A program made the position numbers and the translations under genes. 6,207 nt of DNA from a virus (lineage: Duplodnaviria > Heunggongvirae > Uroviricota > Caudoviricetes): IMG/VR virus record IMGVR_UViG_2698536618_000007; one strand, written 5' to 3'. The notes under the pieces were generated by a model. The model was given only the letters and a program-made list of their open reading frames with translations. It searched no databases and was not told the origin of the DNA. Positions within the stretch are counted from its first letter, which is position 1, and each line of letters begins with the position of its first letter. This document shows, piece by piece, positions 752 to 1,134 of the stretch.

Positions 752-1084
752 TTAATGTGGTGTGCTTCGTGACAATAAATTAATAACCAACACACCGGCA
801 CAAATCAACATCATGCCTATAATGGCTGGCAGGTCCAGCCGTTGGCCGAAAAATCCCCATGACAGTAAACTAATCAGGACAATACCGACTCCTGACCAGA
901 TAGCATAAGCAATCCCTGTAGGAATATAAGCCAGCGTCTGAGCTAATAACCAGAATGATGCACAATAACAAATAATTGTACCAACAGATGGCCATAACCG
1001 TGTAAAACCTTCTGAAAACTTCATTAAGGTTGTACCAATGACCTCTGCAAGTATTGCACCACCAAGATAAATATAAGGGTTCAT
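752..1084 (-). CDS. emrE: SMR-family multidrug efflux transporter EmrE (110 aa)
   Basis: Translation from the internal Met (MNPYIYLGGAILAEVIGTTLMKFSEGFTRLWPSVG...LSRSTPH) matches E. coli EmrE over its full 110 aa as I recall it; four hydrophobic helices. RBS AGGAAAG precedes the ATG at 1084. The ORF-track start at 1138 is an in-frame upstream extension. Confidence 0.93.
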   Translation of the reverse strand: MNPYIYLGGAILAEVIGTTLMKFSEGFTRLWPSVGTIICYCASFWLLAQTLAYIPTGIAYAIWSGVGIVLISLLSWGFFGQRLDLPAIIGMMLICAGVLVINLLSRSTPH

Positions 1085-1099
1085 AGCATATTCTTTCCT

Positions 1100-1134
1100 G
1101 TTCAAACTGGAGAGAATTGTACTACAGTTTGAAC
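1100..1134 (-). promoter_or_regulatory. 10-bp perfect inverted repeat in the emrE 5' region, between ren and emrE
   Basis: GTTCAAACTG (1100-1109) and CAGTTTGAAC (1125-1134) are exact reverse complements separated by 15 nt. On the minus strand the repeat ends immediately before the emrE RBS. No U-tract follows, so it is not a classic intrinsic terminator. Confidence 0.3.

Follow-up and report, generated by a model that had tools for sequence, protein, structure and literature searches.

Our analysis indicates that emrE in the window, the 6,207-nucleotide stretch of viral DNA analyzed here, very probably belongs to an autonomous moron cassette at positions 682-1178 that has its own promoter and its own terminator, and that the inverted repeat upstream of the gene is most likely not an attenuator. 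The cassette (about 682-1178, minus strand) comprises a promoter, a 24-nt 5' UTR, the emrE ORF, and an intrinsic terminator. A preliminary description of this DNA had proposed that emrE forms a self-contained, moron-like cargo unit, and that proposal agrees with what we found: the ends of the unit recur, its GC content is foreign, its transcription start has been mapped, its terminator covaries, and it is expressed from a repressed prophage.

Morons are said to have been defined by Juhala and Hendrix (the HK97 and HK022 morons). As marks of a moron, we took absence from close relatives at the same map position, an own promoter and an own terminator, deviant base composition, and expression from the prophage. 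The gene is missing from SfI, PA28, and Stx1a phages and present in Perceval, 4A7, and others; a capped 5' end has been mapped in identical K-12 sequence, and the -10 element is conserved; a hairpin followed by a U tract (682-721) shows covariation across six lineages and a drop in LF82 RNA-seq signal; the GC content is 0.38, compared with 0.49 to 0.53; and the gene is transcribed in the LF82 lysogen, whose prophage Perceval is 96.7% identical to the window.

EmrE is the model small multidrug resistance pump, and its carriage by inducible lambdoid phages makes it a rare genuine example of a resistance-type gene borne by a phage. Since earlier work on lambda-like phages of the gut already lists emrE as a resistance gene or moron (Mathieu 2020, Misson 2023), the cassette is largely explained as an ordinary, already-described moron of the DLP12 type with a start site that is already in public data. 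What is new here are the precise ends of the cassette and its recurrence in three genomic contexts, the covariation of the terminator, the placement of the cassette where emrE-less relatives carry tR2, and the overlap between repeat and promoter.

Gene order and boundaries of the cassette

On its minus strand, the window carries cro (3773-4003), a gene for a YdaT-domain protein in the cII position (3165-3704), O (2149-3168), P (1451-2152), ren (1152-1454, 100 aa), emrE (752-1084, 110 aa), the small ORF ylcJ (555-704, 49 aa, RefSeq annotation), and the 5' part of ybcK, encoding a serine recombinase (127-497; Pfam Resolvase, E = 1e-16); cI (4042-4797) and gam/bet lie on the plus strand. The minus-strand order P-ren-emrE-ylcJ-ybcK agrees with the earlier placement of emrE between ren and the recombinase, and cI, cro, O, P, and ren are intact in this prophage. 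An IS3-family element interrupts ybcK at about 126, and its end occupies positions 1-126: these bases match IS3 and IS1203 transposase regions on many plasmids and chromosomes by BLAST, and homology of the DLP12 type starts at 126-127. Locus comparison showed ybcK to be present or absent independently of emrE, and ybcK is a cargo module separate from it. The small protein YlcJ has been catalogued (VanOrsdel 2018); its gene accompanies ybcK in complete loci, and the ylcJ ATG (704-702) lies inside the hairpin downstream of emrE.

The presence of an efflux gene in the phage replication/nin region, with ren and P as neighbors, was likewise confirmed. To be assigned to EmrE and the SMR transporters, a product had to pass the cutoff of the curated model and to have about 110 aa, four transmembrane helices, and the essential membrane-embedded Glu14. 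The emrE product scored 240.6 bits against NCBIfam NF042984 (SMR_efflux_EmrE; cutoff of 226) over residues 1-110 of 110, and the solved EmrE chains 3b5d, 7mh6, and 8uoz are full-length matches to it (E = 1e-69 for PDB 3b5d). With its length of 110 aa and Glu14 in place (E14 in MNPYIYLGGAILAEVIG), the product is, judged by its sequence, canonical EmrE, an SMR transporter. The ATG at 1084-1082 makes 752-1084 the true ORF, rather than a 128-aa TTG ORF that reaches 1138.

The cassette of roughly 500 bases, with a GC content of 0.38, stands out against ren (0.52), P (0.53), and O (0.49). Comparison with emrE-less lambdoid phages, which had been suggested as a check, defined its upstream boundary: the ren homology to SfI, PA28, and many Stx1a phages ends at 1179, and pairwise alignment places the SfI break exactly at 1179|1178, from where SfI goes on into lambda tR2, ninA, and ninB. 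Because the SfI break falls at this position, the last nine codons of ren (1152-1178) are supplied by the incoming block, as part of the cassette flank. Where sister Escherichia species carry emrE on its own, the upstream limit of homology is 1176-1185. On the downstream side, homology to Escherichia whittamii and Escherichia ruysiae, which lack ylcJ and ybcK, stops at 669-686, and among the sister species it runs down to between 669 and 751, varying by species.

The gene occurs without P, ren, ylcJ, and ybcK in E. whittamii, E. ruysiae, another Escherichia species, and Escherichia albertii; in E. whittamii, its neighbors are folD on one side and ybcH-nfrA on the other. The folD/ybcH-nfrA region is also the chromosomal neighborhood that houses DLP12 in Escherichia coli. 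The cassette is carried by 3693 of 5426 complete E. coli genomes. Its phage- or DLP12-type form (at least 95% identity) is found in 1408 of the 3693 emrE-positive genomes, and for 2285 genomes the best match is a 92-93%-identical copy (92.5%), with homology that, among the matches listed, is confined to 745-1160. In strain H105, the one locus of this type examined, the 92-93%-type copy lies between fliE and ybcL-ybcM. A cassette with the same ends thus appears to occur in three unrelated contexts: after ren, next to fliE, and alone at folD/ybcH.

We furthermore tallied the cargo architecture of 160 fetched emrE loci, in which emrE is combined freely with ylcJ-ybcK, with ybcL-ybcM, or with an antisense hydrolase. 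The order P-ren-emrE-ylcJ-ybcK-ybcN was found in 46 loci, and an arrangement ending in ybcK-ybcL-ybcM was found in at least 14; an antisense alpha/beta hydrolase and ybcN come after P-ren-emrE in L159-L161 and also in L162, where P lies outside the homology found, and P-ren-emrE-ybcL-ybcM was seen in L158. A model of simple insertion was considered but did not hold, as the 4 kb downstream show no return of SfI homology and none of the emrE loci has tR2. The arrangement is a mosaic replacement rather than a clean insertion, with the cassette occupying the place that lambda tR2 holds in emrE-less relatives and with junctions that look like phage mosaic recombination joints.

Promoter and expression of emrE

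In E. coli K-12, the sequence of which is identical to the window here, Cappable-seq has mapped a transcription start at U00096.2 567514(+) with a score of 12.9 (Ettwiller 2016, PMC4782308 supplement). As the K-12 emrE ATG is at 567538, this start lies 24 nt upstream of it and corresponds to A1108 on the minus strand of the window. A minor start supported by 2 reads was reported at 567508 (window 1114) in Kim 2012. The -10 hexamer TACAAT (1116-1121, minus strand) sits in the loop of the inverted repeat, with 7 nt between it and the start at 1108. Given the mapped start and the position of the -10 box, the likely -35 element is GTGAGT (1138-1143, minus strand), with 3/6 matches and a 16-nt spacer. 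The Shine-Dalgarno motif AGGA, read from the sequence, follows at 1096-1099 on the same strand. Four blocks of the leader are conserved across Escherichia: GTGA(G/A)TT, which is kept in all lineages; the 5' arm of the repeat; the -10 region TAGTACAAT / TAGTAGAAT, which is invariant in E. coli, E. whittamii, E. ruysiae, E. albertii, and C. murliniae; and the Shine-Dalgarno region AGGAAAGAATATGCTATG, which is conserved across all Escherichia lineages. Taken together, a weak promoter of the sigma-70 type (GTGAGT, 16-nt spacer, TACAAT) would start transcription at A1108 and produce a transcript with a 24-nt leader bearing the AGGA ribosome-binding site. A consensus promoter scan of the window did not call the emrE promoter, and the SMRT-Cappable-seq data hold no emrE entry. 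The minus-strand promoter that the scan proposed at 775-746 was rejected, as no Cappable-seq start lies there.

RNA-seq had been named as a suitable check, and published data from a lysogen allowed us to compare emrE with its neighbors. We used the tables of Misson 2023 for the Perceval lysogen of LF82, given as log2(FPKM+5); Perceval is 96.7% identical to the window over 127-1500, and EmrE is listed there among the Perceval morons induced in DMEM. O and P stayed at a background of 2.3 to 3.0 throughout, that is, in LB, after 1 h and 6 h in DMEM, and after 1 h and 6 h in macrophages. Over the same series, renD gave 2.3 to 3.0 in LB, 3.5 to 3.7 and 4.5 to 4.8 in DMEM (1 h and 6 h), and 5.8 and 5.1 to 5.5 in macrophages (1 h and 6 h); EmrE gave 4.4 to 4.5, 6.1 to 6.3 and 6.4, and 7.4 and 5.9 to 6.3; and the recombinase gave 3.1 to 3.2, 2.9 to 3.1 and 4.4 to 4.5, and 5.3 to 5.4 and 5.7 to 5.8. 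For EmrE, this amounts to about 17 FPKM in LB and about 70 to 160 FPKM in DMEM and macrophages. In the lysogen, emrE RNA exceeds ren RNA several-fold and in some cases more than tenfold, and the recombinase lies about 20-fold below emrE at 1 h in DMEM and about 1- to 5-fold below it in the other conditions.

Because emrE is expressed while O and P are at background, it is transcribed independently of pR in this lysogen, and the capped 5' end together with the excess of emrE RNA over ren RNA contradicts the possibility, raised with the preliminary description, that emrE is made only by read-through from ren. The transcripts of ren rise with those of emrE while P stays silent, and a second start upstream of ren, near the P/ren junction, probably adds read-through. 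The other emrE copy of LF82, adjacent to fliE, shows the same profile as the Perceval copy while fliE itself falls to near zero, which would place the regulatory information inside the shared block at 745-1160, although the two copies are 92.5% identical and cross-mapping between them is possible. In this 96.7%-identical prophage, expression is low in LB and higher in DMEM and in macrophages; a repressed prophage such as that of the window would likewise express emrE for its host, at a low level in LB and at a higher one in DMEM and macrophages.

The inverted repeat upstream of emrE

The perfect 10-bp inverted repeat noted earlier right before the emrE ribosome-binding site is present, with GTTCAAACTG at 1100-1109, CAGTTTGAAC at 1125-1134, and 15 nt between them, and it can be extended to 13-nt arms at 92%. 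Read on the minus strand in the emrE sense, the 5' arm (GTTCAAACTG, 1125-1134) lies in the promoter spacer and is untranscribed from the emrE promoter, and the 3' arm (CAGTTTGAAC, 1100-1109) covers -1 to +9 of the emrE mRNA, with A1108 as its second base, and ends one base ahead of the AGGA Shine-Dalgarno motif. The repeat is therefore core-promoter DNA that brackets the -10 box and the start rather than a leader hairpin in the emrE transcript.

We conclude that the suggestion that it could act as an attenuator is wrong. Because transcription starts at 1108, inside the 3' arm, the mRNA of emrE lacks the 5' arm and cannot form the hairpin. Moreover, no U tract follows, the Shine-Dalgarno motif lies outside the helix, the hairpin is not part of the minimum-energy fold of a read-through leader, and its stability collapses in other lineages. 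Most likely, the repeat has no attenuator function and is at most a lineage-specific operator, and we infer that it may have no function at all.

That it is an operator, with a dimeric repressor on both arms that blocks polymerase in rich medium and releases it in DMEM or macrophage-like conditions, is an unlikely reading but one that deserves to be weighed. The repeat straddles -26 to +9, a typical position for a repressor, but the centers of its half-sites are separated by 25 bp, an unusual spacing if a simple dimer binds them. The gene is condition-regulated, and both LF82 copies respond alike although they share only 745-1160, which would confine the cis information to about 52 nt upstream of the start; against this, the region is AT-rich and reportedly H-NS-associated, which could account for the regulation with no operator involved. 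An RpoD and H-NS site has been placed in the emrE-ybcK spacer (Shimada 2014). We searched the literature for a regulator of emrE or a study of its promoter and found nothing relevant.

The occurrence of the repeat itself argues for an operator to some degree. In dinucleotide shuffles, perfect repeats of at least 10 bp with a loop of 3 to 30 nt are expected 0.215 times per window, and at least one is found in 15% of shuffles; when the AT-rich 500-1200 segment alone is shuffled, only 3% contain at least one. The repeat is thus modestly unexpected: unusual, but not compelling alone. The window holds a second perfect repeat of at least 10 bp at 227-250, inside ybcK.

Its conservation gives a weak and mixed picture. 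E. albertii carries two symmetric double changes, as an operator would predict, but the chance probability of two such compensated pairs is about 0.13 by hand calculation. Within the leader, conservation is lowest in the 3' arm, which varies across lineages (CAGTATGAAC, CGGTATTAAC, CGGAATTATC), the Watson-Crick matches amount to 9/10 in the fliE-type copy, 7/10 in E. whittamii and E. ruysiae, and 5/10 in E. albertii, and in a common phage variant the outer pair is lost with no compensating change. A formal count, which admits G-U pairs and depends on a Citrobacter leader whose alignment is doubtful, gave 84% pairing and 4 pairs with double-sided changes, above shuffles; with G-U pairs counted, selection on the repeat is possible. 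That an operator of a host or prophage repressor sets the low expression of emrE in LB and the high expression in DMEM and macrophages seems to us rather doubtful. If true, a dedicated transcriptional regulator would be known for the first time for the best-studied SMR transporter, and the phage-borne lineage would have sharpened the site to its perfect form.

It is quite improbable that, during lytic growth, the repeat works as an RNA hairpin in transcripts that read through from pR or from a start near ren, and in those alone, with a role in processing, stability, or translation. Transcripts coming from ren contain both arms, ren and emrE RNA rise together in LF82, and the isolated fold (-11.9 kcal/mol) ends one base before the Shine-Dalgarno motif. 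In the 106-nt read-through leader, however, the hairpin lies outside both the minimum-energy and the centroid folds (z = -0.33), the Shine-Dalgarno motif is left uncovered, and there is no U tract; its stability is not conserved either, with -8.2, -2.3, and -2.1 kcal/mol in other lineages. An Rfam scan of the whole window at E <= 1 returned no family at the emrE leader and only a spurious rliD match on the O-gene iterons.

Several further identities for the repeat were tried and rejected. By inspection, it reads CTG-N15-CAG, not the N10 of a LexA box, and as a serine-recombinase site it fails since it persists without ybcK. The half-site has a third near-copy at 5185-5194, which is no more than chance would produce. 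GTTCAAAC also occurs in the leaders of 75%-identical Citrobacter and Kluyvera homologs, but its distance to the start codon differs there and it was not treated as homologous.

The downstream hairpin and related systems

The terminator-like hairpin reported after the emrE stop is present at 696-721 on the minus strand (GAGGCUC...GAGCCUC, -13.6 kcal/mol when folded in isolation), about 30 nt from the ORF, and is followed by a U-rich tail, GUUUUAUGCUUUUU, read from the sequence at 682-695. A repeat search describes it as 12-nt arms at 92%, followed by GUUUUAUGCUUUUUG in the emrE sense; the stem has 7 bp (5 G-C) and a 3-bp extension and leads into GUUUUAUGCUUUUU. The 101-nt stretch around the hairpin has a z score of -2.4 relative to shuffles. 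A 1x1 internal loop explains why the consensus terminator scan of the window missed the hairpin at 696-721.

In six lineages, a hairpin and a T-run occupy this position, but the stems differ: GAGGCTC / GAGCCTC in the window and, in others, AGCCCGCA / TGCGGGCT, CAGCCCGTAT / ATACGGACTG, TAGCCTGTAT / ATACGGGCTA, and TTGCCCGCAT / ATGTGGGCAA. RNAalifold recovers this helix from the six lineages; 95.5% of cells pair, and 4 pairs and 8 cells show compensatory changes. None of 500 shuffles reaches the observed level, and slid controls pair at 24% to 46%. The hairpin energies range from -13.6 to -17.2 kcal/mol across the lineages, compared with -15.7 kcal/mol for lambda tR2. With a GC-rich stem-loop, a U-rich tract, and conserved structure, the element has the features of an intrinsic terminator, and the comparison points to a conserved one that has been maintained through compensatory changes in the stem. 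Its U tract is interrupted. The idea that the hairpin is part of a ylcJ-ybcK module (homology to emrE-only phages stops at 724) was rejected, as positional homologs with different stems exist.

The emrE-ybcL junction type is the only one without a hairpin, and in LF82 ybcL, downstream of such a junction, is expressed at a level similar to that of emrE. The portion of the K-12 Term-seq supplement of Adams 2021 available to us lists no emrE 3' end, emrE being weakly expressed in LB; the entry nearest to emrE in that portion, 568940, lies inside ybcK. The terminator would keep most emrE transcription out of the downstream recombinase and nin/Q genes and may serve as a substitute for tR2. The earlier claim that the unit is insulated from early transcription stands for the downstream side, where the terminator shields the nin/Q genes, but not for the upstream side: because no terminator separates ren from emrE, read-through from pR can enter the gene. 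That emrE has no promoter of its own and is merely the tail of a pR-O-P-ren early operon, with the repeat and the hairpin as chance features, would fit this missing terminator and the renD-emrE unit of RegulonDB-style listings, but it is extremely unlikely in view of the capped 5' end 24 nt upstream of the ATG in identical sequence, the lysogen RNA levels, in which emrE exceeds ren several-fold and in some cases more than tenfold and exceeds O and P by far, the expression of the cassette behind unrelated DNA next to fliE while fliE RNA is near zero, and the covariation of the terminator.

Classical lambdoid morons, such as lambda bor and lom, are single host-benefit genes with their own promoter and terminator, deviant composition, and expression in the lysogen, and they lie between genes that are adjacent in relatives; the emrE cassette is like them in its moron features. 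It differs from them in that it lies in the early right operon, at the ren|nin junction, instead of the late region, and in that homology to emrE-less phages never resumes downstream and lambda tR2 is missing. The emrE terminator resembles tR2 in being the first intrinsic terminator downstream of ren and in its energy. In contrast to tR2, it is unrelated in sequence, lies after emrE rather than directly after ren, has an interrupted U tract, and has the ylcJ start codon embedded in its hairpin.

The integron genes qacE, qacF, qacG, and qacH offer another parallel, as small SMR efflux genes, of a family shared with emrE as the NCBIfam search also shows, that, like the emrE cassette, move as units of about 0.5 kb; unlike them, the emrE cassette has no attC-type site and carries its own promoter. 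An attC site follows its gene and consists of an imperfect inverted repeat whose core sites read RYYYAAC ... GTTRRRY. The repeat described above was rejected as a candidate, as it lies upstream of the gene and GTTCAAAC...GTTTGAAC present the core motifs in reverse order; by inspection, the downstream hairpin contains no attC cores.

One of the closest counterparts is emrE of the K-12 prophage DLP12 (b0543, between renD and ylcJ/ybcK), which has the same order, ren-emrE-ylcJ-ybcK. Over about 725 nt (window positions about 640-1365), the two are identical except for three substitutions, 1 in ren and 2 in emrE, and the leader, the inverted repeat, the start-site region, and the terminator are all the same. 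They differ in that K-12 renD is split by IS3C, whereas in the window an IS3-family element has hit ybcK and not ren, and in that the prophage of the window keeps cI, cro, O, P, and ren intact. Among active lambdoid phages with emrE, Perceval (LF82), 4A7 / Lambda_4C10, 1W, 3W, Turner, and PhiR70_1 are 96.7% to 100% identical to the window over 126-1500 and, unlike the window, have an intact ybcK, and some relatives carry emrE without ybcK or together with ybcL-ybcM or the antisense alpha/beta hydrolase.

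Cargo at the ren|nin junction

The ren|nin junction is a hot spot for cargo. In relatives that lack emrE, lambda tR2 (3938-3959 in the homologous locus L003) lies directly past the breakpoint at 1178|1179, where ren homology between these phages and the emrE phages stops. None of the 162 emrE loci has tR2, so in emrE phages the first intrinsic terminator 3' of ren is that of emrE. Four modules assort independently 3' of ren, namely, emrE, ylcJ-ybcK, an antisense BD-FAE alpha/beta hydrolase, whose expression in LF82 is strong in DMEM, and ybcL-ybcM (L084-L163, L001, and L002, downstream of emrE).

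Sister Escherichia species have retained only the ~500-bp emrE cassette (3909-4418 in the E. whittamii locus L004; also in L005 and L006). In E. whittamii, this cassette is flanked by folD and ybcH-nfrA, in the region that is the site of the sfm operon and DLP12 in E. coli. The stand-alone cassette looks like the last remaining piece of a decayed prophage.

Transcription on either side of emrE

In the LF82 data, RNA of renD from the emrE-carrying prophage Perceval (corresponding to 1152-1454 of the window) is up together with emrE in DMEM and in macrophages, with P remaining at background level. This difference between ren and P implies that the repressed prophage has an unmapped transcription start close to the P/ren junction. 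On the other side of emrE, the ATG (704-702) of ylcJ, which encodes a small annotated protein (555-722 region), falls within the terminator hairpin of emrE, whose 5' arm includes the GGAGG at 722-718. Translation of YlcJ would depend on transcription that reads through the terminator or begins at a different promoter; in K-12, Cappable-seq data show no transcription start between emrE and mid-ybcK.

Interrupted ybcK and inverted repeats

An IS3/IS1203-family element, whose end occupies 1-126, interrupts the serine recombinase gene ybcK (127-497) after ~124 codons, and the interrupted ORF reads on into the IS to a stop at 87. In K-12, by contrast, it is renD, instead of ybcK, that is split by a separate IS3 copy. 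The ybcK coding region contains the second of the window's inverted repeats with perfectly matched 10-bp arms, TTGAAAGTCT gtcc AGACTTTCAA (227-236/241-250); two such repeats per window, against 0.2 expected, are unusual. A third near-copy of the half-site of the repeat at the emrE promoter, ATTCAAACTG with one mismatch (5185-5194, intergenic, upstream of the ORF at 5309-5599), is within chance expectation (0.58 expected).

Other phage features

At the position of CII in lambda, the window carries a minus-strand gene (3165-3704) whose 179-amino-acid product contains a YdaT_toxin domain (Pfam E = 8.5e-30) and is not a lambda-type CII. Four to five iteron-like repeats, variants of ACCTGATTCGGGTAAAC, lie within the O gene (2570-2740) and presumably mark the replication origin; the sole Rfam match, rliD (E = 0.47), is spurious and caused by these repeats. 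Between cro and cI, a 9-bp inverted repeat, ATGGTTGTT-N7-AACAACCAT (4042-4066), is probably an OR operator, and the related words AACAAC and GTTGTT reappear near 5080-5110, on the pL side.
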